A DNA stretch of 64,000 nt from Psammoneis japonica (lineage: Eukaryota): NCBI GenBank assembly GCA_008632985.1, contig QPGO01000127.1:124001-188000 (forward strand), given 5' to 3'. The notes under the pieces were generated by a model that was not told where the DNA came from, made no database searches, and was given only the letters and a program-made list of their open reading frames with translations. The position numbers and the translations under genes were made by a program. Position 1 is the first letter of the stretch. Each line of letters begins with the position of its first letter. Shown here in pieces: positions 9,986 to 50,999 of this stretch.

Positions 9986-10126
9986 CTATCGACTGACGCC
10001 ATTGTTGTTCGGTTGTGCGGTTGGTCGTATGAACATTGATTAGGTCTAATTCTGCGTTGTGTTGGTTGATCAAAAACAATAACAGTGTCGTCTTTTCACT
10101 TCTTGTTGTGTTTTGCTAAGCTCAAG

Positions 10127-15584: not shown

Positions 15585-15832
15585 GGTCACCCTATTTGTT
15601 TCGCTGTCTCATCATCAACTTTGAAACTCTCAACGCGATTTTGATTTGCGATCCAAGACAGTCTGACCATCTGTCCCATCGATTTCATTCTTTGCCCACA
15701 TCATCGTCCTTCTCTATCTCGCTCCCACGAAAGCTTGGCCTCCTGCTCTACTCTCTGCTCGTAGTGCATGGCGACAATCTCCACTCTCTAGTGGTAGCTA
15801 GAGTTGCTCGAGTAGAGGGCCCTCTCTGCTAG

Positions 15833-16895
15833 AGAGGACTTTGCATGGCAGGTGGCGGCAGGGCAGTTGAGACGCCACAGAAGGCAGTGGAGTGTTGTGT
15901 GATGCAGCATTGTGGCAAGGTTGCAACTGTTGTGGAGACCTTGCAAGGTCAATGGAGGCACTTGTTTGCATGCCGCCAATGGTTTCAGCACTGACCCTGT
16001 GAGGGCAAAGATGCATTTTATGTCCCCGAAGGTGGCGGAATCCGGGTTCTGGATTTTTGACAGAAACGCCATCGGGGACATTTTTCATGACCCCTTGGGT
16101 GCCAGGATGACGAAACGAGCATTTGTGCCCACGGGCAAAAAGCACCCTGCCAGGCGGAAGGCACCCGGAAAACAGTGCCCTGTTGGGCACTTTGCTTCTT
16201 TGCAGGGTGTCCGGCACGTGATGAACGCCCACAACATGCGCTGCAATCCTGCGAGCTCTGGCAGCTCTTTTGCAGCAACTCCCTCCAACCCAAGTTTTCA
16301 CATCAAGAAATCACACAAGCAACCATGAGCCATGAGCCACTCTCCCACCTGCTCCCACCCCTTCCAGCCACAAGACAATGCCTGCTTGCAGCACAGAAGA
16401 GTTGCTTGCATTGCACAGCAAAGAAGACGTTGACATTTTTGGCCTGACGGCTTCTCAAAATGCGCCTGCTGCTGGCGCAAGTGATGAGAGGCTGCTGTCG
16501 TCAACAAGGCAACCGACCGGCCATCAGGTGGCAAAAAACGTTTGTGTTTCAGTTTCCTGGCATCTTTGAGAAGGCAGCCGGTGAGCACATTTCTGCTTGG
16601 ATTTGCCCTTCTTCACATTGTTTTGATCAAAATCGAGCTCCATCATGCATTCTCAAATTGTTGGATGATCTGGCACTCTTCAAGATGAGCTGCCGGAAGG
16701 AGCACTCAGCACTTCTGTTGCTCATAAATTGCTTGTGTTGAGTGCCAACAAAATGGGTCATCCAAGGACAAAGCATGGCGTGACTGCTGCAACGAATCCG
16801 TGAGCTCCAAGAATGATGCCATCAAGTTGGGAGCGGTGATGGGGGTGATGGAGAAAACATCATTTTGCAGTTTAGATGGAGACGACTGACAAGCA
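15833..16895. other. TpA-depleted domain B (CpG largely retained)
   Basis: One TA seen between 15833 and 16724, while dozens of CG remain. No credible CDS. Confidence 0.85.
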
Positions 16896-19298: not shown

Positions 19299-22200
19299 CT
19301 TCATAGATTCCATGTTCAAGTTAGTTTTGACCCTTGTCGCCTACATTAGGGCTGTATCTATGTGCTCCTAGAGATGATTTGAAATGCACACCGTTGAGAA
19401 AATCTTGAGCAATTCCGCGTTCTAGATGAGACATTTTGGATGTCCAGTGCACTGGCTTGCTGGGCAAGAAGTGGTGAAGAGCAGGGCAAATGCAATGAGC
19501 TTGGTCATTTTTGGAGAGATTGGAGAGTGCTTTGTTGGATTGCAGATGGTGATTTTGTGAGAGGGGCAAGAGATGCTGTGATGTGATTTGAAACAATCTG
19601 TGCGCAGTTGTTCCACATTACTTTTGGTCACTGTGCACAATTGAGGATCATGGTTCGCATGCACAGCGCCAGTGCATCGCGCCTTCAAGATTGCTGTGAG
19701 GTGGCAGATGGCACTGTCAGCTTGTTGCACTCCTGCTGTTATTGTTTCAGGCCAGTCAGGATGTCTCCTGCATGCACAGTCAGATTGAAGAGGGTTTGCA
19801 TTCATCAAGACTGCCCCATTGACACACAGGAACAGTGGCAAGCTGCCTTGTCATTGTGGCTGAGCAGCCTGCCTCATCTGCCTTTGCCCAGCTTCACACA
19901 GCTCATGCCAGCCACAATGAGTGACTGCACCATGACACCCAACAGCAGAAAACAAGTCTTGTCTTGATGATGATGCTCCTCCCCTCTCATCTGTGTGTGC
20001 AGAGTGTGGAGGCTGTGGAGCACATTGGTGCTGGCCTGTGCTTTGTCCTCTTTCTGCTTGCTTGAATCTTTTGCTTTCAGGTGCACCCAAGCCTGCTGGT
20101 GCTCTGCACTTTCAGGCTAAAGCCCAGAGAACAGGGTCCATCAAAATTGAGAACATGCACTCCTCCTTGATTGGCCAACAGCCTCATGGCACTCAGCGCG
20201 ATGATCATGCTTCTAGATGCAATGTGCACATGCATTTGATGGGATGTTTGGGTGCTTTCTTGTCAGCCTTGGTGGTCAACGCTGTCTGTTGTTTGCCACT
20301 CCATTGGCACACAGTGTCTCTGCATCTCTCAGCACTTTGAAAAGCAGGCATGATTGGCTTCTTTGCCAAATTGGAAAGCTGGCACTGTTCATCACAGCAG
20401 CCCATACAAAGCCAAGCTGACCTTTGCACATTTTCAGTCAGCAATGTTCTTGATTTCCACATTTGACACTTTGCACTTGTCATTGAGCACGTTGAAAATT
20501 TTTCTTGGTGCTGCAGCACCAAATGCAGCCATTGGTTGTTCACACTCTTCAATGGAGTGGGTCCCCGGCACAGCTGGGACAAAAAATTGAGAAAATCAAA
20601 ATCCAGCGCAGTTGCTTTGAGTTGGAGGAGGATTCATCGGAGGTGTGCCTGTCTCATCCTGGGGTTGATGTGCATGACGAGGGGGGTGAGGGGGTGACAC
20701 ATCATCACACTTTGCGTTGGTGGGTTCTTTGCAGCATGGCTCTTTTTGCTTGCATTTGAAAGCCAACTCCAGGTTTCCTTGACTGCTTGGTTTGGTTTTG
20801 CCCATTTGGGGATTCCCCAAAATGGCAAGGGCAAGGGGGAATTGCCTTGCCCTTTTGGGGAACACCCAGGAAATGAGGGCAATTTGGCGGGAAGGAAAGG
20901 CTGAAAGGGGTCAGGGGAAGGATCAAAAAATGAGTGCCGCGCGGCAATTCCCATCTTGTTTTACATGGGCGGGTGTGCTGTTTGTCACATCATCTGGCCA
21001 GCCAGAGCCAGCCATGGTCTGCCGCCAATGACCATGACAGATGCATTGACAAATCAACACAAAGCATCCCCTTGTGGTGCAACAAGGGAAGAACAACTTT
21101 GCCATTCAATCATGCACATTGACATTGCTCACAAGGTGTCTGCAAAAGTGGCAGCCATGCTCTGATGGGAGGGGCTCCAGTCCTCTTTGGAAGTGGTGCC
21201 GCACAAAGCTGTCGAGTTCCTGCACAGCCTGTTCTGTGAGTTGTGGGTGTGGCCACCTTCCACAGCTCTTCACTTTGCTTGTTTGATTGACTGTTCCTCA
21301 GACATGCTTCAAATGGTGAGCTCATTTTGACCACAAAGAAGCAGCTTCAAATTGGCGATCTGTTTTCTGTGTGGATTGTGCGCAACATTCCAGCATCTCT
21401 GATGTCACACAGGGAACATTCAATCTCCTAAAATGATCCTTTGCAAACTCAAACTGGACTGACAACAAGATCATCTCATCACCCATGAGCTGCAGCACTG
21501 TCTTGCAACCAAAGCAGCTCTTTGCAAAGTTGATTTTTGAGCTGATTTCAGCTCTCAAACCAAGAGCATTCAAAACATTTTTGTGCTGCTGAGCTGCTGT
21601 TGACTGTCATGATCATGAGCTCCTTTCCATCTCTAAGACAGTGCTGCAATGATGTCAGCGGGGCACTCAAATGTTTTGCACTTTGTTGCGGAATCTTCTG
21701 TTTGTTCTCAAATTGAGCTGCCCACAAGACATCTCAATCCATGCAAGACAAACAAGTGCCAGGCCGTCAGATGTTGTGATCTTGCCTTTTGGTGGAGACC
21801 GTGGTGGCAGCAAGCACACACAGCTTGCTTGTTTGAGCTCCCACCAACAGGAAAGATGGAAACTCAGCAATTTGTTCAATTCTCTTTGGCAATGATTGAA
21901 AACAGATCTGAGTGTCAACACAAGATGCAGCAATGTCCATCCAAAACAAAGACTTCTCCAAGAGCTTCATGGTCTCATCCAACCATGCCCCAGATGACTG
22001 GAGCATGGTGTTTGTCAACAATGACACCCTGGTGAGGAATCAAGTGAAAGAGAAGCAAATTGCTGTTCAGCCAGTCGTTGGTCATTTGTGACAAAATTGC
22101 AAGGTGAAAAAGCAACAAACAAGTCACACCTGCTTTGGATTTTTGCCTTTTGTTGATGTCATTGATTGTCAAGATTGTGGCCAAAGAAGATGCAATGTCT

Positions 22201-22325
22201 CAAAAAATGTGTGAACCAAGAAGAGGGCAACAAGCAATGTGCTGCAGGTTTCATGACAATTGATGTGGTGTCAGCAGCTCACAACAGCTGTGAACTGATG
22301 AATGCCACCATCATTGAAAGACATT

Positions 22326-22983
22326 GTTGGGGATGGCAGTGGAGCCTGGAGTTGTGCAGATGCAGTGAGAGGTTCAAAACCTCTGGAAGATGGCCCAACA
22401 TCTTACATCTTCTGTCATTGGCACAACATCTTTAGGCAATGGAGTTGGGAATGTCCACCATGCAGGAGATCACAAAGATGTCAAAGACCAAACTTCTGGA
22501 AGTGGATCAACCACAAAAGAGCAAGGAGATCACTCCTCTTGTTCCTTTGTAGAAACCCAAAAGTGATTGAAAAATTGCTTGGGAGTTTCAGTCTGCTGCT
22601 TCTGTCATGGACTTTTGCTTCATGGGCAGATGAGTTGGAAGTGAGTGGACGACATCCTGATCCAATGTTTTGTCCTGTCCTTTGCACATGACTCCATCTG
22701 CAGATGAGCTGAGATGCGAGAACTGAGCCAACTGCACCAAATCCAGATGCATGATCTCCAACAAGCCAATGAGGATCAAGCTCTGAACTAGATGGAACCA
22801 ACAGAGAGAGCAGAGAGGCAAGTTGCCAAGATGTGCCCAGGTGACTGGCAATCAATTTTGTCTTGCAACAAGCAGGAATTGCTCGTGGGAGGCTTGGATT
22901 GATCCCCCAAGCAGTCCACAGACCCACCCAGGTCATCCATGAAAGTGCAGCCCTGCTTGTTGGTGTCTGGCAAGCCACATCCA
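22326..22983 (+). repeat. ~660-bp degenerate direct repeat, copy 1 (copy 2 at ~27011-27683)
   Basis: Shared blocks include catgcaggagatcacaaagat and gagtttcagtctgctgcttctgtcatggacttttgcttcatgggcaga. Confidence 0.9.
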
Positions 22984-23052
22984 GAAGGGGTTGCCAAATG
23001 GATGCAATTGCCATGACAGACCACAGACTGCACTGCACAACAAAAACCATGC

Positions 23053-23317
23053 TCCACCCTGTTCAAACTCTCAGCAGGCAAAGAAACATTTCATGAACAC
23101 TGTTGCCACTCTGGATGACATCCCTGTGGCCCATGCACAAAATCTGTGTGTGGCCAGTCCAGTGCTGAAAAGGCCCTGTGGAAATCCACCCTGTTCAAAC
23201 TCTCAGCAGGCAAAGAAACATTTCATGAATGCTGTTGCCACTCTGGATGACATCCCTGCAGCCCATGCACAAAATCTTGTGTGTGGCCAGTCCAGTGCTG
23301 AAAAGGCCCTGTGGGAA
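23053..23317 (+). repeat. 132-bp tandem duplication
   Basis: Units start at 23053 and 23185 (tccaccctgttcaaactctcagcaggcaaagaaacatttcatgaa...). Confidence 0.95.
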
Positions 23318-25236
23318 CCATCATGTCCAACCTGGGTGGCGGATGAGACCAAACATGGCACAATGACTGGCCAAGCAAGGTGCGAGAGAGCACAAGGAAT
23401 GTGGTTCATGTCATCACAACCCAAGACAGTCTCTGAAGAATCACAGCAATTTCAAAAATGTGTCATTTGGAGACATCTGATCCCCAATGTTTTAGAAAGA
23501 CATTTGTGAAATCAGCACCAAGGCACAGAGAACAGATGGCTGATGGATGGGGCACACACAAGTGGATGAATCGGCAAAGCCAGCCCATCCTCAGTTTTTT
23601 GCATTTGAGGTTTGTTGTGCTGGTTGTGTGTGGAAGCCTTGTGGACAGTGCAGCCAAATCCAAGTCTCCCTCTGCTTTTTTCTTTTTCCCCCCAGCCCAC
23701 CCCTTCAACCTGACAAAGTGCACAGAGGGCTCAGGACAGATCTGCAGTGGTGGTCCTGATGTGGTCCAAAAACCAGGCACAGTCAAAAGCACCCTTCTTC
23801 CCAGTTTTGCAGTCATTGCTCTCATGGACACAAGCAGCAAGGGTGAGGCCACATTGCCCCATGATGACATTGAAAAAGGCAAGAAGGTCTTCATCAAGCT
23901 GGCGCAATTCTTTGGTGACATGGGTCTTCACCAGCTCCTCTGGCTCATGTTGGCGCAGACAGTTGCCGGCATTGTCAATGGCTTGCACTCCTGCTTTCTC
24001 TTCTGCTGATGGTTTTGTGCCAAGGGCTTCCTTGGCATGGTGTGGTGTTGGTGCCTGTGGGCACTTGCACTTGGGGTTGACAAACATGCCCTTGAAGAGA
24101 GAACGCGTGTGTCATTCGGGTGTGTGTTCTTTGCCAGTGAACTCTTCAAGCTTGAGAGGATGGCCCTAAACTGGTTGGGGTTGGATGACAAACCTTGTTG
24201 CACGCGTTGATTGTCATTCAGTGCATTTTGTTGGTTCCTTTGATTCTGTCCACCTTGATTTTGGCAACCCTGTCCTTGGCTCCCATTGTTGCCTGGACAA
24301 ACGGGTGGGCTGTTGGTTGTCCTGCCATGGCATTGTCACTGGCAGGTGGGGGTTGAGCACTGTTGGCACTCATTCTCTGTGTGGTGCATTCCACATTCCT
24401 GGGATTGCAGCAGATGGGATCATTTGTGGGGCATTGCCCTGCTTGAGTGTCACACATGATGACCACCCTGGTGGCCATGAAACCTGCAACAGCGCCAGCA
24501 CTGCCAGCTGTGATGTGGGTTCATTTGAACCTGCTGACTCTGTCACCCCCTGGGAGACCCTTGTGCATGTTGCAGTCCTGCCAGGTTGCCCATGTTGGTC
24601 CAGTGCCTCCAGAGGAGTCAAGGGAGTCTGTGAGCATTGCCAGTCATTCAGCAAGTGCAATGTTCAGATGGTGAGCGCTTTAAGCTCTTTGGACAGTGCC
24701 GCCATCTCAGAGTTGTTCCGCATCCAGAGTTTGTGCTTTCTTACTTCGGCGGTTCTTCAAAATTGATTCCAAAATGAAAACAAGTTGATTTCTTTTGCGT
24801 GACTGTCACACGGCGCGTTCAGCTCCATACCTTTCAGTCAGAAGGAAGAGTAAACAACAATCAGCTGTCCATCTTAATTTGTTACGCAATAGAATGAGAC
24901 GAACCCATGGTCATCATCTCATTCGATACGATTGTTCTTTGGGCATGAGGTCGACGTGGTCCTCGTCTGAGCCGTCCAGCTCTATCAGTTAGCCTAAGGT
25001 ACTTCTCCGCTTACGGTGTCTCGGTAAGCCAGTCTACAGCGGCCAAGTCCAGTACTTTTGGGAGAATGTCATTGAAAGGTCAATGTAATCATGTAATCTA
25101 TGTACGGCGGTAACCCGTTCTCTCACTACTCGATGGTGCATTCGTAAGTTGCTCATTCATGCATTCAATCAAGATGCTCCATAAAGTGTTTCTTAATAGT
25201 TGAACTACTACTATGCATGCCTATCGATACTTCTTG

Positions 25237-26385: not shown

Positions 26386-26764
26386 AGCGTCCGATCAAAA
26401 ATGGTAGATATGGGAAAACGAGATCAGCCTTTTATTCACTTGTTTGGTTCGTTCCAACTACTTAGGTCGACCACAATCACAATTACATTAGATGCGGTCG
26501 AAAAAGCAACAATCAGCCTTTCAAAATATGCAAAATCAACACCAATTGGCATCGGCGAGAGCATCAGAAGAGGGGTATCTCGTATCTCGCGACAAGGCAC
26601 TGGACTCAAGAAAGAGCTTTTTCGACTCGGACTTGATGAGCGGAATGTAATCTGTTTGGACTGTTGTCCCGACAGAAAAACAAACTTGCTTAAATGCACA
26701 CTCACCGGCGTCACAACGGCATTACGCCAAGATCTCACTGATGGGAAAGCTCTGCCGGCATGTA

Positions 26765-28728
26765 GACTGACCGCTCTGCGCTGCACGTCCCAGGCGGGAT
26801 CGGCTCCCACCTCCGACAGACCAAGAGTGGCGATGCCGGCCCGAAGTTGTGCAGTGTCCTCCTGGATGACGACATTGCGCTGCGACACAAATTTCCACTT
26901 GTGGTTGCTCCAGGAAGCCCCTCCAAGGTGGGTTGTTCCGTGGGTTCAGAAAATTGAGGATGATTCCAAGCCTGCCTGGCGATGAGGAAGATGCCTCACC
27001 ACAGGAGTGTGTTGAGGATGGCAGTGGAACCCAGAGTTGTGCAGATGCAGTGAGCGGTTTAGAGCATCTGGAAGATGGCCAAACAACATCTTCCGTCATT
27101 GGCACACCATCTTCTGGCAACAGAGTCGGGAATGTCCGCCATGCAGGAGATCACAAAGATCTCAAAGACCAAATTTCTAGAAGCAGATCAACCACAAAAG
27201 AGCAAGGAGATCACTCCTCTCGTTCCTTTGCAGAGACCCAAAAGCAATTGAAAAATTGCTTGAGAGTTTCAGTCTGCTGCTTCTGTCATGGACTTTTGCT
27301 TCATGGGCAGAGTTGGAAGTGAGCAGACATTCTGTTCCAATGTTTCACTGCCATCCTGTCCTTTGCACATGACTCCATCTGCAGACGAGCTGAGATGTGA
27401 GAACTGAGCCAACTGCAAATCCAGATGCATGATCTCCAAGCCAATGATGATTGAGCTCTGAACCAGATCATCTCCACCTCGTCCACCGACAGAGCCAACA
27501 GAGAGAGCAGAGAGGCAAGTTGCCAAGATGTGCCCAGGTGACTGGCAATCAACATTGTCTTGCAACAAGTCAGAGTTGCTCATGGGAGGCTCAGATTGAT
27601 CCCCTGGCCAAGCAGTCCACAGACCTGCCCAGGTCATCATGAAAGTGCAGCCCTGCTTGTCAGCATCTTGCAAGCCACATCCAGGTCAAATTTTTCTGGA
27701 GCTTTCCAGTGTGTGTGCTTGTTGTGCCAAAGCAAAGTTGGCAATGGGCCCAAGAACTTTGTCCCATCATGTGTTGCAAAATGGAGCAACTGTGCTCACA
27801 CAAAATTGTGCTCATCTCAGCAACTGTGAATGGGCTTGCAGTCACCCAGAGCTGACTGCAAGCACACTGGTTGCCAGCCTTTTCCAGAAAGGCACCACAG
27901 CTTGTTTGCTGCAAAAGGATGATTTTGGCAAAAATCAACAACTTTCCTGTTGTGGTGGCAACTTCACAAAATCTGACAATTGGAGGCCAAAGCACAAGCT
28001 TGCAACCCTGGATGAACAGCTCAGTCTTAATGGCACAAGCATCAGCAGGTAATTTGTTCTCCCCAAGATCATCACACCAGGGGCAGCTGGCTTCAACCAA
28101 AGTCACAACAGCACGCAGATGAGCTCTGGAGGAGGATCCCTGCCATTGCAGATGACACATGTGCCAAGGGAGTGCAAGCCAGCATTGAAGGTTTTGGCAC
28201 TCACAAAAATGGCACAGCGCACATCTGCCTCATGTTTTGGTTTGACACTCTTCACTGTGGTGGTGTGTCAACCACACCTGTCATGTGTGAGTGGATGACC
28301 AGCAAGCCAGGGCCACATGCTGTGTTGATGACAGCCACTGAGTCCATGGCCAGTGCCAGGTCAATTTCCATCAACAGAGAAGAGCCATGTGGATGCTCAC
28401 AGTCCATTGATCAGCACCAGGACTGAGACCAGTTTTGTCAGTTTGGAGGAGTTGAGTGTGAGATTGAGGTTGGATTTTGAGCAGAGTGCCATCAAAAACA
28501 CCCTCCTTGAGCCAAGCACGTCAAAGGAGGTGAGCATGTCATGTCCTGACCATCACTCATCTTCTGGCAATTGGTTCCTTTGTCAGTGGATCATGGGGCA
28601 GAAGTCTGACTGTGCCAGCCCAGTTTTGTGATGGCCACCAACCTGTGTCGTCTGCACTGCCGCCTGTCAGATGCTGCCTTGTTGCACTTTGGGGCATTGT
28701 GCCGATGCCGAGTTCCAGAGGTGCTCGC
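26765..28728. other. TpA/CpG-depleted decayed domain D
   Basis: TA nearly absent. CG survives only at the edges. Contains repeat copy 2 and most of the VMO-I pseudogene. Confidence 0.88.
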
Positions 28729-28910
28729 ATAATTTCTGCGCCTCACCTGTTGGTGGGCTTCTAACTAGGAAACCTACAAGCAGGAACTACAGGATTCGAT
28801 TTGAGTGCAAGGGAGACAGATCGAAAGCAACCTCAAGATGGTGGCAAGAACTTTTTGTTGAAGATGGGTCAATACTACTTTGTGTCTCTGGCACTGAAAA
28901 ATCACAACTG
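28170..28910 (+). pseudogene. Decayed 3' copy (including 3' flank) of the VMO-I gene at 49497-50702
   Basis: Colinear with ~50110-50857, e.g. tcttctggcaattggttcctttgtcagtgg versus tcttctggtaattggttcctttggcagtgg, and agcaggaactac in both. Has indels and stops. Confidence 0.9.
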
Positions 28911-29492
28911 TCGCACGCTTCCCGGCAGAAGAACTTCAGAAAAGACACAATGCGGAACGTTCTGCCATTGCTCTTGTTGACTGTGACAGCATGCCACGAG
29001 CAAATGCCGTCAGAACCCTGGGCGGTATGCCCATCCATCTCACAGAAATGCGGATGCTCAGAAGGTTTGTCGGCCGCCTCTTGCCGTTTGTGAAGAAGGA
29101 GATGACACGCGGCCTTCGCTTGGAGATTGTATTCTGCGATGCGATGTTGTTGACGACGGTGAGCATTCGGAATGATTTGCCATAGAAATCTGGAGCGCCT
29201 GCTCCCCCGGAATGAAGTTCAGTCCAGAAGGCATTGGCAATCACTTGAGTGTCTGGATGCGATCTGACGTTTTGCAAGGCGCATGGCTTGTATTGCGAAT
29301 CTTGTACTGTGTCCCGATCGTCTTGTCGTACTTTTGCTGCATATCTCAATTCGACGTCACGACGCATCCGACGTATTGGCGAAACAAAGACAATGTTTTG
29401 CGTAATACATGACTTGGACGAGAGGTTGAGCAAAACGAAACTCCAGAGTTCAGCTCGCATACGGTAGGCGTTGTACATGCATAGAATCAACC

Positions 29493-32076: not shown

Positions 32077-33591
32077 TCACTTCTGTGAAAAATACTGTTT
32101 TCGATGCTCTTGGCACTCACGGGTCATTGTCCAAACGCAACACATGTTGTATTCTCTATTCTCCAGGTCCTGTAGACAGGTCTGATCTGTTGAAAGGCCA
32201 CATCCTTCCCGCGCAAAATCAAAGAGCAACATATGAAAGTTGGAACAGCAATTTCCAAACAAAAGCGTTGCATGAAGTTGCATCTGAATTGCAAGCAACG
32301 AATTGAACCAAACGTCCTCGGACGACCCAGCAAATCTTCTTGGCTTTCCAGAATTCTGTGACACATCGTTACGATTCACTATGAAATCAAAAGAGGCCGA
32401 CGAGTTGTATGAATCAATGTCGTTCATAATGGAGCTGGCCTCAGAAGTCACAATGAGGTGTGGGCGCTGATTGGGATATTTTGCGAACGTTTCGTTCGCC
32501 AACGCCATGTATGTTTCAAATTTAAGCACGTGCTCTCTCTTATGCATTTGTCACTTCCTCGAATCGGCAGTCCCACAAGTGTCTTTCCTGTAGTGGTATC
32601 CGCACTTGGCATGATTGTTTCGAGTCGTTGTGCTAGTTTCGTCTTGACAGAGGGACTCGGCTGCATCAGATAAAGAGACACGGCATGATGAAACTTGTTA
32701 AAAATAAAGGAATACTCTTCTTGTCCCTGTTTCTCGTAATTCATTGCCGGAGGTGTATGATTGAGCTTTGCAAGAGCTTGTTCTAATACTTGAACAAAGG
32801 ACGGGTCTGTGACGGTTTGGACAAGTTCTTGCACCAACCAGCTAGCTCTTTCGGACACCTTTCGTGTTACCCTGGTCATAATTCCTCTTGTGTTCTGTTC
32901 GATGTCATCTCGAATGTCAAAGCCATAGTCAGCCTTCACCGCCTGTATTTCATGTACATCGTTTGGTAAAGTAAAGTCGTTCTGAACACTGGGGAGTTGC
33001 GTCTTGTTCAACATATAAATATCTTTTGTTAGATTCGTCATGCCGCAGTGAGTTGTAGGAGCAAATTGCCAGGGGACTTGTTTGATGTGATGCCATACAG
33101 GGGCATGGGTTAAATACGGATCCGACCCATTGAAAGCGCAAGAAAGAATTGCGGAACAGCATATGCTCGCAATGTCGCACCCAAACCTAGACCCAGAACG
33201 GTTGACACCAAGTACTTGGCTTGGTGACACTCATATTGAGGGGTGGGGTTTCCAAACTGCCCCAATGGTTTTCCTCCCGCTCCTAGTACTGGTCGGTGTA
33301 GCATATCATAAATACTCAGGTAAATCATCTTGAATTCCCATGCCTCAATTTGAATGATATCTGATGCGTTCCAAATTTGTTTTTCTGGCATGAGAGTTCG
33401 GAAAGAACTTTTTTCGTGACACATTGTGCTTCCCAAAATAGATGTAATGTTTTCGAACAACTTTGTTCTTTCGGCTTTCCGCTCTCAATCATCTCGTCCG
33501 TCCATTGCAGGGCAGTCAACTCAGGTCCGTTGGCGAGTTGTAATATAACCTCCAGCAGCACCAGGATTTTGAGCCAATCTGTACACTTCAT
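32077..33591 (-). pseudogene. GT23-like paralog 2 with three 1-nt frameshifts (pseudogene or assembly indels)
   Basis: Four ORF pieces (33591-, 33460-, 33230-, 32547-) tile the paralog 1 protein. Breaks near 33460, 33120 and 32523. Confidence 0.75.
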
Positions 33592-37374: not shown

Positions 37375-37732
37375 GAGACACAAATAGATATTCTCGTTTG
37401 TACTTCTGACAAGGACGACTCTTGCGCAGCAGATCTCTCATAACATCGTTTCTCTCGCAGTCTCTTACGGTACCACTTCTTCCGAATCGCCAACAGCATG
37501 ATGTGCTTGTTTCAGTCTGTTCTCCGCGGTCATTATTGTGCCTCAATTTGTTTTTTAAGCCCACCATGCAAATGACCCAAAAACTATGTCCGTCCACTAT
37601 GATATTTTGAATACAAGTACCACACAAGGTACCATACATTTATCTCCTCATTTTTTTTTCCAGCGTAACTGTAGCATAGAAAGTCACAACCCAAAGTAGT
37701 TATTGCTAAACCAGGCATGAGCATGAAGGGAC

Positions 37733-40700
37733 ATGGCGCCTTTACCTCTTTTCTTAATAGCGGCTGTTATAATGCTATGTTGTAATCCACTTGTCAAGGC
37801 CGGTTTTCCGAGCAACATGAGTGCACGAGATAAAGAAAAACTCGGGGGCATGATGAACGGACAACTTGCGATCCCCGATGCCATGCCGCTGTTTGTAAAG
37901 TACAAAAACAACAAAGGCAAAAGGGTTGCAAAGCGCTGGGCAAAGAACAAAAAGTTTGTAAAACATTTTCCAAAGCGCAAAATTGTGATTCTTCATGCCA
38001 AAAACAGCACCGCTCTTAGGATTCTCACCAAGAGCCGCGTCATTGCCTACGTCGAACCGGTTCACAAGGTGCATGCTCTGCCAGTAGGCGAGCATATACG
38101 AATGCTACATGCTCGTGTTTTAGAGGAACATATTGGCTATGGAGTCAAAATGGTACAGGCAGACAAATTATGGGACCTTCCTGCATCAAAGGACAAAATC
38201 ACGGTATGCGTCATCGACAGCGGATACGGGTTGGGGCACCCTGATTTGCCTAGCTTGGACAACAACGTTACTGGAACTTCGACAAGAACTGGCGATTGGA
38301 GACAAGACGGGTACGGTCATGGTACACATTGTTGTGGGATTATTGGCGCGGTTGGCGGCAATGACATGGGGGTTACAGGTGTGATAAGAGATCCTGCAAG
38401 ATTCAAGTTCCACATTGGAAAATGTTTGGATAGCAACGGAGACGGTACTGAGGGCGAAGTGTTGGATGCGTTCGACAAATGTAGAGATGCCGGAGCAAAA
38501 GTCATTAGCATGAGTCTAGGTGGAGACGATTACAGCGAGTCAATCCGGAGTGCTTGTAAGGATGCCTATGATGAAGGTGTTCTCGTGGTTGCTGCATCTG
38601 GGAATGGGGGGAACTCAGACTATTCATACCCAGCGTCGTTCCCAGAGGTCGTGTCCGTTGCAGCTGTTGATCAATTTATGAAGGTCGCTAGTTTCTCTCA
38701 ATACAACGACCAAGTAGAGATCAGTGCGCCTGGGGTTGATATTATTTCCACAGTCGTGACTAACAACGGACAAGATTTCGGCTACGAAAGATGGTCGGGA
38801 ACATCAATGAGTACTCCGTTCGTTGCTGGAGTAGCTGCAATGGTTTGGTCATACTTTCCTGAGTGCTCCAACAACCAGATCAGAAATGTTCTTATTCGAA
38901 CTGCAAAAGTTAGAGGTCGCCCCGGATGTAATGACGAGCTGGGGTTTGGCGTCGTACAAGCCAAGGATACATATGAACTGCTTAGGAAAGACGGATGCAT
39001 TGCAGGCGGCTTAGATCCTGCCATTTTGTCGGATGGCGCGGTGGGGGGGTGTCTTCAGGACCCACTGTATACAGCGTCTCCCACGGAAGCTCCCACCCCA
39101 TTCAGCTGTGAAGAGACGGTGTTTCGACTCGAGTTAACCACCGACAACTGGGCCGAGGAGACTTCATGGGTGGTAGCAAACTCTTCCAACGAGGTTGTGG
39201 GTTCCGGTGGGTCATACCGTGATTCCAACGTGTATACCGAGAACCTGTGCTTACCTCCTGATGAGTACACTTTTACTTTACGGGATTCCGGCAAGGATGG
39301 AATTTGTTGTGCTTATGGTCAAGGAGGCTATGAAATTTATTTCGATGAAAAACTTGTAAAGAAGGGTGGAAAGTTTGAAACTGAAGACACGGCTCTTTTT
39401 GGAGAGGTGTATGAGACCGACATAACGCCATCTCCAACCGCAACTTCCAGTGTGTGTCAAGATGACAACAAATGGACTTTCGTTACTTCTAGAGGAGTTA
39501 CAAAGAAATGCAAGTATTTGAAGGTGGATTCTACTTCGCGGTGCAAGCTTTTGGGGATCAACAAATCTGGAAAGGCCACTTCTGGCTTCTTCTCTTGCCC
39601 AGTTACTTGTGGTAGATGTTCCCCAAGGCTACCATCATCTCCTGTTACTTCGTCGCCAATGTCTAAGTCTTCAGAAGTGCCAATGACGTTGCTACCAACA
39701 ATATCAACATCACCTCCATCACCACAGCCTACAATTTCGCCTACCAAGTCTCCGACAAGCGTATCAACTGGAAGGTCAACGACGTTTCAGCCTACAGTAT
39801 TACCATCGTTTCCGCCTAATACTTTTCCACCGACGCCATCACCGACAACCCGGCCAACAGCGCTGCCGTCTTCGCAGCCTACAATGTCATCTACACAATA
39901 TCCCACTGCGCTGCCGACACTCCCTCCAATCTCACCTTCAGCATCACAAGACAAATCGTTGACAGTCGTACCGACAGAAGCCCCGACGTTAGCCGCTCCC
40001 ACTCCACCGACGCCAGCTCCAACCCCAACTGAGGCACTGCATACCAAAAGCCCGACATTGTCTCCAACTATGGCGCCCCCACCGCGGACGCTGGCCCCAA
40101 CTACAAAGTCGCCTACCAAGATGCCAACAAGATCTCCGACATTATCACCGACCGTAGCTCCCACGCCACCGCCGCTACCCGACGAGCCGTGTGATACCAA
40201 TTATTGCAATTTCTACGACATTGCCTGTGTCAAGGAATCCAAATTTCCGTATATCTCTACTTCGAATGGGGAGTCATATCTATGCTGTGTAGGCTCCGGC
40301 TTTTGTAAGGACTATCGAGATGGCAGAAACCCCTCCAGTGTTCAAGGTAGCAGCTATGATTACCTCTGCTGTCGGGGGAAGCAGACATGCTCCGGTTCGC
40401 ACATTGAACTACCTCGCAAGGGAGCTTGCTGCCAAAGCACAAATTCCTGCAAGTTCTCAACGTTTACGAGATCCAATTCCATATCTGGTAGCATTGGACT
40501 GAGGTGTGAAGGCACTCAATCCTGCAAAGACACCGACTTTAAGAATGCTGGGCCGATGGACTTTTGCTGCACAAGCGACGGAGATCAGACGTGTGCAAGA
40601 ATGATTGAACCTGACATGGATAGCAGGGTGAATATGTTGACAAGAGATCCTCCCACCATCCCATCAGCACCAGAAACAGTATTAGCCCCAAGCACGGCTC

Positions 40701-41191
40701 TCGAAGAGCCCCCAACCGCACCACCTGACGAGCCGTGTGATACAAATTATTGCAATTTCTGCGACATTGCGTGTGTCAAAGAATCCAAACTTCCATACAC
40801 CGCTACTGTGAATGGGGAATCGTATTTGTGCTGTGTAGGCGAAAGCACATGTAAGGACTACCGAGAAGGCAGCAAACCCTCCAGTGTTGCTGGCCATGGC
40901 CATGATTATCTCTGTTGTCGCGGAAAGCATACATGCTCCGATTCACAAGTTGAGCTTCCTCGAAAAGGTGGTTGTTGCCAAAACATAAAGGCATGCAAGT
41001 CTTCGACATTTACGAGGTACAATTCCATTTCTGGCAGTATTGGACTAAGGTGTGAAGGTACCCACGCCTGCAAAGATTCTGACTTTAGGGGCGCTGGGCC
41101 AATGAACTTTTGCTGTATCAACGAAAAAGATAAAGCTTGCAGTAGAATGATTGACCTGGAAGCAAGCAGTCAGGTGGTCTTCTTACCTTGA
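37733..41191 (+). CDS. Secreted subtilisin-like (S8) protease with C-terminal accessory domains, Pro/Thr/Ser linker and two Cys-rich repeats
   Basis: Signal peptide; triad VCVIDSG / HGTHCCG / SGTSMSTPFVAG; AASGN oxyanion site; RVL before the catalytic domain; repeats starting PDEPCDTNYCNF x2. Confidence 0.93.
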   Translation: MAPLPLFLIAAVIMLCCNPLVKAGFPSNMSARDKEKLGGMMNGQLAIPDAMPLFVKYKNNKGKRVAKRWAKNKKFVKHFPKRKIVILHAKNSTALRILTKSRVIAYVEPVHKVHALPVGEHIRMLHARVLEEHIGYGVKMVQADKLWDLPASKDKITVCVIDSGYGLGHPDLPSLDNNVTGTSTRTGDWRQDGYGHGTHCCGIIGAVGGNDMGVTGVIRDPARFKFHIGKCLDSNGDGTEGEVLDAFDKCRDAGAKVISMSLGGDDYSESIRSACKDAYDEGVLVVAASGNGGNSDYSYPASFPEVVSVAAVDQFMKVASFSQYNDQVEISAPGVDIISTVVTNNGQDFGYERWSGTSMSTPFVAGVAAMVWSYFPECSNNQIRNVLIRTAKVRGRPGCNDELGFGVVQAKDTYELLRKDGCIAGGLDPAILSDGAVGGCLQDPLYTASPTEAPTPFSCEETVFRLELTTDNWAEETSWVVANSSNEVVGSGGSYRDSNVYTENLCLPPDEYTFTLRDSGKDGICCAYGQGGYEIYFDEKLVKKGGKFETEDTALFGEVYETDITPSPTATSSVCQDDNKWTFVTSRGVTKKCKYLKVDSTSRCKLLGINKSGKATSGFFSCPVTCGRCSPRLPSSPVTSSPMSKSSEVPMTLLPTISTSPPSPQPTISPTKSPTSVSTGRSTTFQPTVLPSFPPNTFPPTPSPTTRPTALPSSQPTMSSTQYPTALPTLPPISPSASQDKSLTVVPTEAPTLAAPTPPTPAPTPTEALHTKSPTLSPTMAPPPRTLAPTTKSPTKMPTRSPTLSPTVAPTPPPLPDEPCDTNYCNFYDIACVKESKFPYISTSNGESYLCCVGSGFCKDYRDGRNPSSVQGSSYDYLCCRGKQTCSGSHIELPRKGACCQSTNSCKFSTFTRSNSISGSIGLRCEGTQSCKDTDFKNAGPMDFCCTSDGDQTCARMIEPDMDSRVNMLTRDPPTIPSAPETVLAPSTALEEPPTAPPDEPCDTNYCNFCDIACVKESKLPYTATVNGESYLCCVGESTCKDYREGSKPSSVAGHGHDYLCCRGKHTCSDSQVELPRKGGCCQNIKACKSSTFTRYNSISGSIGLRCEGTHACKDSDFRGAGPMNFCCINEKDKACSRMIDLEASSQVVFLP

Positions 41192-41479
41192 GATCATATG
41201 AGAGTTGCGGGCGAGCACTGGTGCACTCTGAGGAAATAACATTTGTCCGTGCATCCTCCATTTCAGCAGGTAGACAATGACGCTACGTGACAAAAATGCT
41301 CTCTCTTAGAGGGAAGCCCTGAAGCGGACTTTGGTAATATAGTGGGTGCTGTTCGGGTAAACGCATTATTACTGCGAGAATTCGTGACTCGAATCTATCA
41401 CTGCTAGCTCTCTTAGACAGGGCCCCATCGATAGTAACTCTACTCTACTCTTTAGATAGTAGCCAGCTACTAACTAGCT

Positions 41480-41497
41480 AGAGAGAGAGAGAGAGAG
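41480..41497. repeat. (AG)n microsatellite inside a CTAG/TAG-rich tract
   Basis: agagagagagagagagag. Confidence 0.9.
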
Positions 41498-41559
41498 CAC
41501 GGCACTGTTAGAGAGTAGGGCCTACTCTCTACTCTCTTGCTGGATGGCAAAGATTGCAC

Positions 41560-41730
41560 TTCCGGAATGCTCTCCGATTTACCTCGTCTCTTCCCGCTCC
41601 GTCATCACCCAATCCCTCTACCAAACGCCCTCTACCAGGTCCTGCGTTTTGTGCCCGTTTTATTCTGCCGTCACTGCAGCCACTTCCGTGCCTCCGTCTG
41701 CTGTTCCCTTCCGCTCTACATGGGCTCTTT
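41560..41730 (+). mobile_element. 5'-truncated 3' fragment of the non-LTR element at 1-470
   Basis: Matches ~310-470, e.g. tccgtgcctccgtctgctgttcccttccgctctacat versus tccgtgcctccctctgctgttaccttccgctctacat. Confidence 0.75.
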
Positions 41731-41774
41731 CACTTTGCACTTAGTGTAAAATGACCTTCACTTTCGGACCTCGT

Positions 41775-44540
41775 AATGAGGCACTTCCCCCTGTCTTTTC
41801 CAGCGCAGAGCATGGCAGGAAATGTCACACAACTTTCTTGCCAAACCAGGTGGGCATGAGCACAAAGGGACATGGCACCTTCACCTCTTTTCCAACAATG
41901 GTTGCTGCAATGCTGTTGCAATCCACTTGTCAAGGCCAGTTTTCCAAGTGACAGCATGAGCGCACAAGATGAAGAAAAAATGCAGCGCAAGACGAGCTGA
42001 CAAAAGCTGTGATTTTCCTGACACTTTTGCCATTGTCAGCAAAGCACAAAAACAACAAAGGCAATGAAATTGCAAAGAAATTGGGCAATGAACAAACAGG
42101 CAAGGTTGAAGACCTGCTTTCTCTCTCAAAGCTCAGAACCGGGTGGGGGTGGCTCTTGATGCAAAAACAGCACACCGCACTTCCAAGGTGTGCACTCTGA
42201 CTGCTGGAGCAAGACAAGCCTGTGCAGGTGTGGCATGCTTGTGTTCTGGAGAAAGCCATTGACCACAGCTTCAAAATGGTGCAGATGAAAAGGTGGTGCT
42301 CCTTGCAGTGTGCATTGCAATGAACAAAATCACAGCATGCACCATTGGCAGCAGAGCAGGTGTGGGTTGCAGCACCCCATGATCTGACTGGCACTGCTGA
42401 ACCTTTCAGAAGAACTGGGGATTAGAGACAGTTTGGGTGTGGTCACAGCATGCGCCACTGTTGTGACATTGTTGGTGGTGCCATTGGCAGCAAAATGATG
42501 CTGCAGGGGCTGCACATGCACAAGATGCAAGAAAGGGCAAGACAAAAGTTTCATGCACACACTGAAAACATTTGGATCAAAACAGAGACAGCATTGAGGG
42601 CAGCACATTGGGTGCATTGAAAAATTGTAAAAGTGCCAGAGCAAAAGACGTTGGCATGAATCCAGATCGTGATGACTGCAGCAAATTAATTTGTGGCATT
42701 CAACTTGCAAGGGTTCTCATGGTGAAGGTGTTTTGCTGGCAGTTGGCACAAAAGGACATTGTGAGATTTAGACCATTGACAACCAGCCACAGCCCCAGAG
42801 GCCAGCCATGACGGTTGATCAGCTCACAAACATCTCAGCTTTCTCTCAGTGTGACAGACAAGCAGCCTCCAGAGCCCAAGCCAAGAAGCTGCCAATGACA
42901 TCACCATCAACAGCACCACCATCATGATTGCAGCCTGCACAATGCCATCTCTTGTGCCAAATCTCCAGCAATGATGACAGCTGGAAGACCAACAACATTT
43001 CAGCCTGCAGCATTGACTCACTGTCATTTCTGCCTGGTGTTTTTCCACTGACGCACCACCATCAGCAGCACTGCCACCACTGTCATGGCCTGCAATGTCA
43101 CCCAGCTCCAGAAATCTCCCATGGGGACACAGACATTTCCTTCAATCTCACCTTGAGCATGTCACAAAACAAAACAATCACCGAACAAGACCATGCTGGC
43201 AGTGTGCTAGAAGCACCAACACCAGCTGCTGCCACTCCACACATGGTGCCAACTCCAACCCAAACCAAGGCACTTCAGTGTGCCAATGACCCAGCACTGT
43301 CTCCAACTTTGGCTCTCCCACTGCATTGATGCTGACCCCAGCCACAACCTTCTTGCCTGCCAAGATGCAACCAGCAAGGCAGATCTGTGACGTTGTTGCT
43401 GGCCGCAGCTTTTGTGCTGCTGCTGCCACCATCCAGCAAGCCATGGGATGACTGAGATTGCAAAAGTCCCTTGCTCAGCATTGCTGGCCCCACCAGCATG
43501 GTTGTGGCTGTGTGGTGGTCACATTTTTTGTTGCAGAAAAAGCAAGCATGCTCCAACTCACAACAGCTCAAAAATGTGGTCACACTGGCTGCCACAACAC
43601 AAAAACATGTTTTTGGCATTTGTCAGGCACACACCTCCATTTTTGGTGTCACTGGACCAAGGTGAAGGGGGGGGGCACAAAGCCTTGACAAAGACACCAG
43701 TGCACTGTCATCACCACCAAGAAAGACTGGCTTCAGCAGAGAGCGACTGACCTGGCTCGAAGCATGCAGCCAGGTGGTTTCCTCACTTAGAGACCCACCA
43801 AAAGTTGTGTGGAGTGCTGGCACATTCTCAGCAAAGAGCTCCAGTTGTCTGTGTGGATCAGATCCAGCCCCACTTGAGCATGAGAGAGAGAGAGAGATGA
43901 CGGTGCTGAGCCACAAAACTGCTCTCCAGCGGCGGTTGTCTGTGCAAGCAAATGCCATGTTTGCCCTGAGTGTGTTGTGAACTTGGCATTTTGACTCCAA
44001 ATGCCACCACCATTTTTCCAAATGTGCCCTGGTTCTTTCTCCACTGGTGGCAAATTTTCTGTTGATGGCAAAGCGCCGCCAAACAACACCTCACCGCCAG
44101 GGCACAGCAGGGGCACACGGATGACACAAGGGAGAGTCAATCGGAGGTGGCATTTGAAGGCTTCTGAACCCAAGAAATGAGTTCGTTAGTGCACATTTTT
44201 CACACACAAACCACAGCAAAATTTGTGGCATTGCGCTGAATTGGAGCCAGTTCCGCCAGAGCATCATGCGCGCGACATTGCGAGGCATTGTGTTTGTGCA
44301 GATGATGCACCACTGCTCTCTGGCAGAAGGAAGCCCTTCTCAACTGACTTCAACAACAAAGTGGGTGCCGTTGTGTTGGCGGGCAGATGCATTGCTGCGA
44401 GAATTCGTCACTCGGGTGCTCTCGCTTGTGATGCTCACCGACCCTGTGGCACGAGCGTCCGCCAAATCAATTTTATTCCCGGACTGCACTGACCTGGCAG
44501 TTCTTGTTCCCGCCAAGAAACACTTTGTCCTTTGCGAACA
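41775..44540. other. TpA/CpG-depleted decayed domain E
   Basis: TA almost absent. CG returns at ~44220, before TA does. Confidence 0.88.
41843..43795 (+). pseudogene. Decayed, internally deleted tandem copy of the subtilisin gene
   Basis: Colinear homology from the 5' UTR (aagggacatggcaccttcacctcttttc) through the catalytic N-half, linker and Cys repeat to the stop region (caggtggtttcctcacttagaga versus caggtggtcttcttaccttgaga). Confidence 0.9.
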
Positions 44541-44792
44541 GTATGACATTCACGTGCGCAGGACAAACTCATGTACATTACATATGCCCGTGCCATTGTC
44601 TTGTTTTGTCACCTACCCGCGAACTTGCAAATTGCACACAAAGTTGCGAATTACAGTAATCTGTCTTGTTATTGTAGCAACACTCAAGCGCAACTCAGCC
44701 GTGTTCAATAACAGGACAAAGTAATTCAATCATTACTGTACCTCTAGGGAGTCAGTCAAGGTCAACGAGCAAAAGCAATCGCAGCGAGCACG

Positions 44793-48900: not shown

Positions 48901-49496
48901 AAATTCGAATTATGACATGGGCCATGCTACTACCAGAATCAATCAAGAAGGCGTATGTCGAACCAAAAAACGGCTACCTTGCTACCAATAGAAGTTGCGT
49001 AGATCGAAAAGAAGAAGAAGGGGCAGTATCCCGAGCTTATATACATGCTGGTAAGTTTTCTTTTTGTACATTTGCGAACTCTGTTTGCACCGCGTCTCTG
49101 ACGAAGAAATATTTTCCGTGTACACATCCAGTTCTGACTTGCCAGCATCCTTTGTTTGCTTGATGGTTGTTGTCAGTAGAAGTAGTTGTCAGGCAGCCGA
49201 ATCGTCGATACTATTCACGACCAAAATCGCGACCACGGCCAATCGGGAATAACAAGTTGAATCTTGGAAAGCAGGTGATTCGTGATCTGTCTGTGCGCCG
49301 CCGCTGCGCTGACTTCAGCACCAGACCCCTCTACCGGTATCGTACATGGCTACGCATTGGCCGTACTGGAAGTGCACAAGCAGTTTTGAGTTGGTCGCGG
49401 AATTTGCCGCCACCCGGGATCCGGCGCTCGACTTTGCCTACCGAAATAAGTTGCTCACAAATTCGATAAACAACAAACAACGCAAAAAGATCCAAG

Positions 49497-50702
49497 ATGA
49501 AATTCTCTGCTGCAGTCTTCCTCGTCCTTGCAAAGAACTTTGCTCATGGCGGAGCCGCTGATCCCCGTAGCCTCCGCGGCTCGAAGGATGGCGACAGCAT
49601 GGATGCTGTATTCACCCCTCCTCTCTGCGAAGAGCCGGGAAACAAGCGAGCTTCTCTCCTGGAAAAAGATATTGTAGATAAGACAATTGAGCCAGGTGTG
49701 TTTGGTGATTGGAAACCATGGCAAGTTGAGGAGAAAGGCGGATTTTATGCATGCGGCGCTCGAGTCCGATTCCAGGACTTTGGCGAGCACAAAGACGACA
49801 CTTCCGCCAATGCTCTCGAGCTTACGTTCTGTTCACTCTTGGATTGGCGCGCACAAAGTGAGAAAAAAATCAACGATGGCCTCTTTGGTGACTGGAAGAA
49901 GAAAAAGATGTGCCCTTACGGCTCATTTATCAACGGAGCTCAAGTAAGGTTCGATGACTTGGGCGGCCACGAGGACGAAACTACACTCAATGGATTGAAG
50001 ATTCATTGTAAGAATCCTATGTCAGGAGCTACACAGTGGGTAGAAGTTGAAAAGGGACTCTTTGGAGATTGGAAGAGCCCAACTATTGTTGACGATAAAT
50101 ATGTGAAGGGAGCACGAGTCAGAGTCCAAGATTTCGGCGTTCATAAAGATGATACAGCATGGAATGGCCTTCACTTTAGGTTTGACAATCTTCACTATGG
50201 TGTATCAACCAAGCCTGTTATTGGAGAGTGGAGGACCGGTGAGTCTGGGCCGCGTGTGTCGACGACAGTCACTCAGTCCATGACTACTACAAGGTCCACT
50301 TCAGTCAGCCGGGAAGAGTCGTACGGATTCTCGCAGTCCATCAGTGCCGGGTTTGAGACCAGTTTCTTTGGTTTCGGAGGAGTTGAATGGGAGATTGAGG
50401 TTGGATTTGAGCAAGCGTTTACAACGGAGAGAGCCGTCGAGAACACCCTCGAGTTAAGCGTCTCGAGGGAGGTGAGCGTGTCGTGTCCGGACAACGATTC
50501 GTCTTCTGGTAATTGGTTCCTTTGGCAGTGGGTCATGGAGCAGAGTTCTGACTACACCGGCCCCGGTTTTGAGATGACCACCAACCATGTCGTTTGCACT
50601 GCCGGCTATCAGAAGCCTCCTCGTTGCCCTTTGGGGTATTGCGCGGATGCCGAGTGCCAGACGTGCTCCTATGAGTTCTGCGCCTCGCATATTAGTAACT
50701 AG
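49497..50702 (+). CDS. Secreted protein: VMO-I beta-prism domain plus Ser/Thr-rich beta segment and Cys-rich C-terminus
   Basis: Signal peptide, RSLRG; three repeats G.FGDW....G(A)RVR.QDFG.HKDDT..NG; tail WQW...C....PPRCPLGYC....CQTC. Confidence 0.8.
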   Translation: MKFSAAVFLVLAKNFAHGGAADPRSLRGSKDGDSMDAVFTPPLCEEPGNKRASLLEKDIVDKTIEPGVFGDWKPWQVEEKGGFYACGARVRFQDFGEHKDDTSANALELTFCSLLDWRAQSEKKINDGLFGDWKKKKMCPYGSFINGAQVRFDDLGGHEDETTLNGLKIHCKNPMSGATQWVEVEKGLFGDWKSPTIVDDKYVKGARVRVQDFGVHKDDTAWNGLHFRFDNLHYGVSTKPVIGEWRTGESGPRVSTTVTQSMTTTRSTSVSREESYGFSQSISAGFETSFFGFGGVEWEIEVGFEQAFTTERAVENTLELSVSREVSVSCPDNDSSSGNWFLWQWVMEQSSDYTGPGFEMTTNHVVCTAGYQKPPRCPLGYCADAECQTCSYEFCASHISN

Positions 50703-50999
50703 CAGGAACTACCGGTGGAACAGAGTGATATTAGTTGAGAGAAATGACGAATCGAAAACAGCCACAATATAGTAGCAAGACGATTTATTGTTCAAGATGG
50801 TTCAACGTTACTTTTTCTGTGTCTGCGTAGCGCCTTTGGTAGTGAAGAATCACAACTTCCTCTCTACTTATAGTAGTTTCTCCTGCAACTACCCATCTGT
50901 TACCATATGTCATTCTCCCGCAAACTATCAGTCTCATGATCAGAAACTAGTAACTGCGAGGAAACCCTGGGCCTCGTTATCTTCTGTCTTATGAACAGT

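Follow-up and report, generated by a model that had tools for sequence, protein, structure and literature searches.

What kind of mutational process erases one copy of a duplicated gene and leaves the neighbouring copy as it was? We address this question at a subtilase (peptidase S8) gene of the diatom Psammoneis japonica and its degenerate duplicate, which lie side by side in a 64-kb window (64,000 nucleotides; contig QPGO01000127.1 of assembly GCA_008632985.1, positions 124,001 to 188,000), a gene-dense, eukaryotic stretch of ~48% G+C to which all coordinates below refer. We find that the duplicate has lost nearly all of its TA and CG dinucleotides, mostly to CA and TG, that the dinucleotide content of the parent gene is normal, and that the two losses are probably the products of two processes rather than one.

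The parent gene (37733-41191, forward strand) occupies an uninterrupted open reading frame (ORF; 37727-41191) that encodes 1152 amino acids from the ATG at 37733 and 1154 from stop to stop. The protein matches Pfam Peptidase_S8 (PF00082) with E = 3.8e-50, and an 11-sequence alignment shows residues D162, H196, G356, T357 and M359 to be invariant and S358 nearly so; the S8 domain together with D162, H196 and S358, which we take to be the Asp-His-Ser triad motifs, places the protein in peptidase family S8. Its nearest named subtilase relatives come from the diatoms Skeletonema, Thalassiosira, Ditylum and Proboscia, at 39-50% identity. Pro/Thr-rich linkers are followed by two Cys-rich C-terminal repeats (40177-40613 and 40723-41158, ~145 amino acids each, 79% identical), which have no Pfam match and are preceded by long Pro/Thr/Ser-rich linkers. 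At position 40215, in the first of these repeats, the assembly reads TAC (Tyr) and a contig from a public sequencing run, described below, reads TGC (Cys), a TpA/TpG difference inside an active gene; the second repeat carries Cys at the matching place. The dinucleotide content of the parent is normal (rho TA 0.68, rho CG 0.82), its rho TA being the highest among 14 genes of the window (range 0.42-0.68), compared with 0.05 in the copy and 0.50 in the gene that follows the copy. The parent is thus intact, as an earlier note on this DNA had held, and only one of the two copies has been hit, as that note had also proposed.

The degenerate copy lies downstream of the parent on the same strand and spans 41796-44479, ~700 bp more than the 41843-43795 assigned to it in the earlier note, which recognised a dead copy and drew it too narrowly. 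With the parent protein as query, tblastn picks up the copy in pieces that are spread over three frames, interrupted by in-frame stops and 28-63% identical to the parent; plain blastn detects just three short pieces of it. Standard local alignment gives 73% identity between parent 37656-38722 and copy 41796-42870, with 707 matches, 258 mismatches and 202 gap columns. Because the process at issue consists of transitions, we made a second alignment scored so as to tolerate them, and this resolves the copy into two collinear segments. Segment 1 (41796-42865, forward strand) is homologous to parent 37656-38717, that is, 77 bp of 5' flank and codons 1-328; it carries stops and frameshifts, its codon for the catalytic Asp162 reads Gly, and it keeps only 1 of 46 TA and 1 of 46 CG. 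Segment 2 (42865-44479, forward strand) is homologous to parent 39652-41446 and contains the linker, the poorly preserved Cys-rich repeats and ~255 bp of 3' flank, with an alignment score of 648, where 20 shuffles gave at most 84. At the junction, 934 bp of the parent (38718-39651), including the catalytic Ser region, have been cleanly deleted. With the Ser region gone and Asp162 replaced, the copy is dead, and the 75 transversions among 739 sites outside TA/CG contexts (10%) are those of an old pseudogene. A leftward extension of the homology to 37407/41545 in the transition-tolerant alignment is pyrimidine-rich and weak, and we do not count it. Inspection of the ends of the copy revealed no poly(A) tail and no target-site duplication. 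The spacer between parent and copy (41192-41774) is unmutated; a (GA)n run and one short dispersed repeat lie within it, and no local repeats were found there.

Because a single hit destroys a TA, dinucleotide survival is a fairer measure of the process than base rates. The standard alignment shows TA kept at 1 of 45 sites (20 now CA, 18 TG) and CG at 2 of 41 (18 CA, 9 TG), with the remaining 14 dinucleotides kept at 42-78%. Well-aligned parts of the transition-tolerant alignment retain 1 of 67 TA (29 now CA, 28 TG) and 3 of 86 CG (39 CA, 26 TG); across all of its parts the figures are 2 of 108 TA (46 CA, 38 TG) and 9 of 123 CG (55 CA, 35 TG). The seven parent-to-copy changes cited as examples in the earlier note are all present in these alignments, and its expectation that A>G would be enriched at TpA holds, with 32 of 67 sites changed compared with 63 of 343 where the A follows another base (Fisher p = 1e-6), and T>C too is more frequent at TpA (29/67) than in other contexts (59/254; p = 0.002). 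Outside TA/CG contexts, A>G amounts to 21/228 and T>C to 23/171, and we reject biased gene conversion, since the change is specific to TpA and is not a general AT→GC shift. The copy thus exhibits both a TpA-specific A:T→G:C hypermutation that yields TpG and CpA and a CG→TG/CA excess over other contexts, as expected of CpG decay.

The direction of change was read from an outgroup of ten diatom subtilases, with 300 codons aligned without gaps. Parent and copy differ non-synonymously at 168 of these, and at 121 of the differing codons the outgroup has a majority state (at least 50%), which is that of the parent at 71, that of the copy at 5 and that of neither at 45. Tyr136 (TAT) and Tyr165 (TAC) of the parent, each Tyr in 10/10 outgroup sequences, are His and Cys, respectively, in the copy; Tyr279 (TAT; 9/10) is His and Tyr299 (TAC; 10/10) is Gln; and the conserved Leu262 (CTA), Val328 (GTA) and Arg128 (CGT) have become CCA, GCA and TGT. 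Because the outgroup majority sides with the parent by 71 to 5, the parental states, polarised in this way, are ancestral, and TA→CA/TG and CG→CA/TG occurred in the copy only, which is the direction that the earlier note had read from the intactness of the parent.

We find that the losses are confined to a sharply bounded domain. The TA-poor domain (41775-44541) contains 8 TA in 2767 bp. TA density is normal to either side of it, the flanking genes are unaffected, and each of its edges falls within ~20-60 bp of the point where homology ceases to be detectable. Nested within it is a CG-poor core (~41805-44073), and the margin from 44074 to 44541 has lost its TA at normal CG density (between 44074 and 44479, aligned TA is kept at 1/22 and CG at 5/14). 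The window contains five TA-poor domains in all; all 5 of its CG-poor stretches sit within them, and the TA-poor domains outreach the CG-poor stretches by ~250-860 bp at all 8 outer edges. Strand symmetry differs as well. TA fates in the subtilase copy are strand-even (46 CA vs 38 TG), and CG fates lean to CA, at 55:35 in that copy (41796-44479) and 18:7 in a second degenerate host-gene copy (28124-28910) described below. As the domains of TA and CG loss and their strand symmetry differ, we conclude that the two losses are probably two processes rather than one; the earlier note was right that both occur, and the single shared process it assumed is probably not the case. A runs test detects no strand clustering for either (TA fates, 47 runs vs 43.2 expected; CG fates, 41 vs 43.8). 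Outside CpG, G>A (35/206) exceeds C>T (10/134; p = 0.013); replication and antisense transcription are possible causes of this strand bias in the loss of cytosine.

We compared the assembly with contigs built from one public sequencing run, which may share its sample with the assembly. Modified bases can produce systematic miscalls in nanopore assemblies, and the pattern could on that account be an artefact of long reads, with the real DNA retaining TA and CG. One run contig covers the parent with 2 differing letters, and another covers the copy over 41699-43774 with 8 differing letters in 2075, at similar k-mer depth (parent 56.7, copy 64.1). Because the run contigs reproduce both loci at like depth, both are single-copy and an assembler or polishing artefact is excluded. 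The 934-bp deletion, the many indels and the 10% transversions likewise belong to an old, real pseudogene, and CpG differences between assembly and run contigs go in both directions, 4 and 4, all of which makes miscalling of modified bases highly improbable. The differences themselves are concentrated in the copy domain, with 11 sites in 2767 bp, whereas the 4327 bp compared on the side of the parent contain 2 (p = 0.001); 8 of the 11 are CpG vs TpG/CpA, 2 are TpA vs CpA/TpG and 1 is a transversion.

The residual TA bear on timing. At background rates measured outside the TA/CG contexts of the copy, ~115 re-created TA (~74 through transitions, ~41 through transversions) are expected in the domain; only 8 TA are present, and an early burst at duplication followed by quiescence is therefore excluded. 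Five of the 7 residual TA that can be aligned oppose a parental CA or TG and are therefore new. Double transitions between CA and TG are 2.2-2.7 times as frequent as those at other dinucleotides (p = 3e-5 in the transition-tolerant alignment), as would be expected if sites cycle through TA or CG. This evidence is compatible with continuing TA erasure.

A search of the literature did not find a TpA-erasing signature described in diatoms; the only match was a preprint on the chlorarachniophyte Bigelowiella natans (Mettrop et al., bioRxiv 10.64898/2026.01.13.699255). Two integrated viral regions of B. natans mutate at ~1000 times the rate of the remaining genome, and in mutation-accumulation lines 230 of 231 viral-region mutations are A>G or T>C, all 230 on TpA; the larger region, from a nucleocytoplasmic large DNA virus (NCLDV), is reported to be single-copy and transcriptionally silent. 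As the enzyme, its authors put forward a DNA adenine deaminase of the ADAT2 type. The subtilase copy shares with the NCLDV and virophage hypermutation of B. natans the changes TpA→TpG and TpA→CpA on both strands, the sharply bounded domains with unaffected neighbour genes, targets that can be single-copy, and a long-term footprint of TA depletion with CA+TG enrichment. It differs in lineage, a diatom (stramenopile) as opposed to a chlorarachniophyte (rhizarian), and in target, a host-gene copy as opposed to viral or transposon DNA. Erasure here is also near saturation, with rho TA of 0.05 vs 0.45 in the NCLDV region, and it surrounds a nested CpG-depleted core, whereas the words 'CpG', 'diatom' and 'pseudogene' do not occur in the preprint's main text. 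The rate in B. natans was measured in real time, whereas the process here is read from sequence comparison. The preprint lists 24 enriched Pfam families 'of likely host origin' in TpA-depleted coding sequences, and host-gene copies may already be among these; what the present locus adds is an outgroup-based proof of polarity for a TpA-erasing process. The nested loss of CG resembles the decay of 5-methylcytosine at CpG in that CG→TG/CA is confined to the core of the domain, and diatom transposons are CpG-methylated through DNMT5a (PMC9998398). Such decay accounts for half of the pattern, with a footprint narrower than the TA-poor domain and a strand bias of 55:35.

Is the target of this erasure set by duplication? 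The same signature marks a degenerate fragment (28124-28910, forward strand) that was copied from the 3' half of a VOMI-domain gene and keeps 3 of 27 TA (11 now CA, 10 TG) and 5 of 37 CG (18 CA, 7 TG). The source region (50060-50860, forward strand), comprising part of ORF 49470-50699 and its 3' flank, is intact and normal in dinucleotide content (Pfam VOMI, E = 4e-25; rho TA 0.49, rho CG 0.89). This copy is not in tandem with its source, which is 22 kb away, and erasure fades ~200 bp before the homology ends. When the five TA-poor blocks were searched by tblastn with 37 proteins of the window, just these two copies came up; the targets identified are copies of a host subtilase gene and a host VOMI gene and not foreign (viral or transposon) DNA. 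Other duplicates of the window are spared. A three-member tandem family of 73-75% nucleotide identity is unmutated, as is the parent's internal repeat (79%). A short dispersed pyrimidine-rich repeat (~41572-41726), related to 315-464 at 77% identity and adjoining the erased copy, retains TA and CG even though it is multi-copy in the genome: summed k-mer depth reaches 1474 in the bin 41497-41737, compared with 57-64 in the flanks, or ~25 genome equivalents, and many run contigs pile up on 41664-41727. Host-gene duplicates are thus hit, as the earlier note claimed, and duplication is not supported as the trigger, since other duplicates are spared.

Repeat-induced point mutation (RIP), known from Neurospora and other Pezizomycotina, converts C to T at CpA and so makes TpA, mutates both copies of a duplication and stops as the copies diverge. 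The process at this locus shares with RIP the dense, context-specific transitions that kill a duplicated copy and a tract close in length to the duplicated segment, but runs in the opposite direction, since TpA is destroyed (CA→TA at 2 of 132 sites vs TA→CA at 29 of 67); moreover, the parent is spared, and erasure either went on or came late at ~70% identity. The earlier note's description of the process as unlike classical RIP is borne out by the sparing of the parent. A homology-triggered defence with A:T→G:C chemistry, in which the duplication itself sets the mutated tract, would nevertheless account for the match between the TA-poor domain (41775-44541) and the homology (41796-44479) to ~20-60 bp at both ends, and for two independent host-gene duplicates with the signature in a single window. 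We consider it quite unlikely: the parent has been left alone, its synonymous and flanking TA included, erasure did not cease when identity dropped to ~70%, the tandem family, internal repeat and high-copy short repeat are unmutated, mutation in the VOMI copy stops short of the homology and the larger target in B. natans is single-copy. An RNA origin fares worse. The copy is roughly transcript-sized (77 bp of 5' flank, coding region, ~255 bp of 3' flank), and ADAR favours A residues with a U on their 5' side (bioRxiv 10.64898/2026.01.13.699255), so that a transcript hyper-edited from A to I after U, then reverse-transcribed and inserted, might be envisaged. Editing of RNA, however, alters one strand, and here TA→TG (28) and TA→CA (29) are equal and interleaved; the 3' end of the copy bears no remnant of poly(A), TA loss extends ~60 bp beyond the homology, and both the CG loss and the present-day polymorphism would be left unexplained. 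The parent has no intron, so that intron loss cannot decide the question, and we regard a retrocopy as scarcely credible. A different proposal concerns chemistry: a modified base at TpA, either a 5-hydroxymethyluracil-type T or a mispairing modified A, might decay passively in silent chromatin with no dedicated deaminase. In dinoflagellates, 5-hydroxymethyluracil takes the place of part of the thymine, with a preference for TpA. As TA is palindromic, T>C and A>G are indistinguishable, and the even fates (46:38), the lack of strand clustering, as for independent single-site events, and the parallel with CpG decay nested in the same domains all agree with such decay. The literature on diatoms and 5-hydroxymethyluracil, however, is, among the matches listed, all on dinoflagellates, and hypermutation in B. 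natans occurs in a subset of lines (11/15 for one region, 6/15 for the other), from which its authors infer a regulated activity. The sequence does not discriminate deaminase from modified-base chemistry, and we rate purely passive decay as rather unlikely.

Our preferred reading, to which we assign a probability of roughly 0.7, is that the copy arose long ago as a segmental duplicate of the adjacent subtilase gene, is dead, sits within a silenced chromatin domain and has been subject to two context-specific transition processes, both targeted by the state of the domain. One would be CpG→TpG/CpA, most simply through deamination of 5-methylcytosine; the other would be a faster, strand-symmetric TpA→TpG/CpA with the signature seen in the silent viral DNA of B. 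natans. The domain would be picked by its state, as silent, dead DNA with active genes on either side, and not by homology to the parent, and TA erasure would either persist or have come late. As chemistry, the leading candidate would be a TadA/ADAT2-like enzyme that acts on DNA and deaminates an adenine preceded by T (A→I, with I then read as G); the alternative would be that the T or the A of TpA carries a modification that is mutagenic. Several observations weigh against this reading. It presumes silencing, methylation and base modification of 41775-44541, and both edges of the TA-poor domain lie near the homology ends, as a homology-defined target would also predict. The middle member of the tandem family (32080-33484, reverse strand) can be aligned to its intact paralogues only in three successive reading frames with nothing between them, a pattern that implies two frameshifts, and this probably dead paralogue has not been erased (rho TA 0.50, rho CG 0.85); deadness may be insufficient alone, or this copy may be young, or the frameshifts may be assembly errors. 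The absence of strand clustering offers nothing that points to processive action of an enzyme on a single strand. A single late burst could likewise explain why so few TA have been re-created, the CA↔TG excess reaches just p = 0.076 in the standard alignment, and the 13 differences between assembly and run contigs may be alleles rather than marks of independent lineages.

The remaining TA-poor domains of the window vary in content. Those at 4991-10020, 19371-24820 and 26701-29180 have nested CG-poor cores, and the domain at 15821-16890, between a PolX/BRCT gene and an actin-like gene, has normal CG density and a single TA between 15831 and 16724. Two 85% identical copies of one repeat, 22325-22984 and 27010-27684, are both erased. 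A Pfam scan of the 129 stop-to-stop ORFs of at least 110 amino acids in the window gives no match in any of these remaining TA-poor blocks.

The parent/copy pair shows what transposon data alone cannot, namely that ordinary host DNA is a substrate for this process, and that TA erasure did not end early, as judged by the scarcity of re-created TA and by the sites at which assembly and run contigs still differ. The locus also argues, again beyond the reach of transposon data, that TA erasure is not directed by homology to a second copy, and makes it separable from CpG decay in both extent and strand symmetry. Erased DNA contains long spurious ORFs, because its TAA and TAG stops are gone, and drops below BLAST detection, to three short matches in the present case. 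If the process is enzymatic, it would point to a naturally occurring editor of adenine in DNA that acts strictly at TpA. It would also mislead gene prediction, the annotation of repeats and molecular dating in such genomes. More tentatively, and with somewhat more doubt than belief on our part, diatoms and chlorarachniophytes may share a chromatin-guided DNA base editor that strips TpA out of any DNA that has been silenced. Such inactivation would be irreversible, widespread among eukaryotes and the reverse of RIP in direction. If so, the editor would be an adenine deaminase or a T- or A-modifying enzyme, its targets would include dead copies of host genes, transposons and viruses, and its footprint would run ahead of and beyond the decay of methylated CpG.

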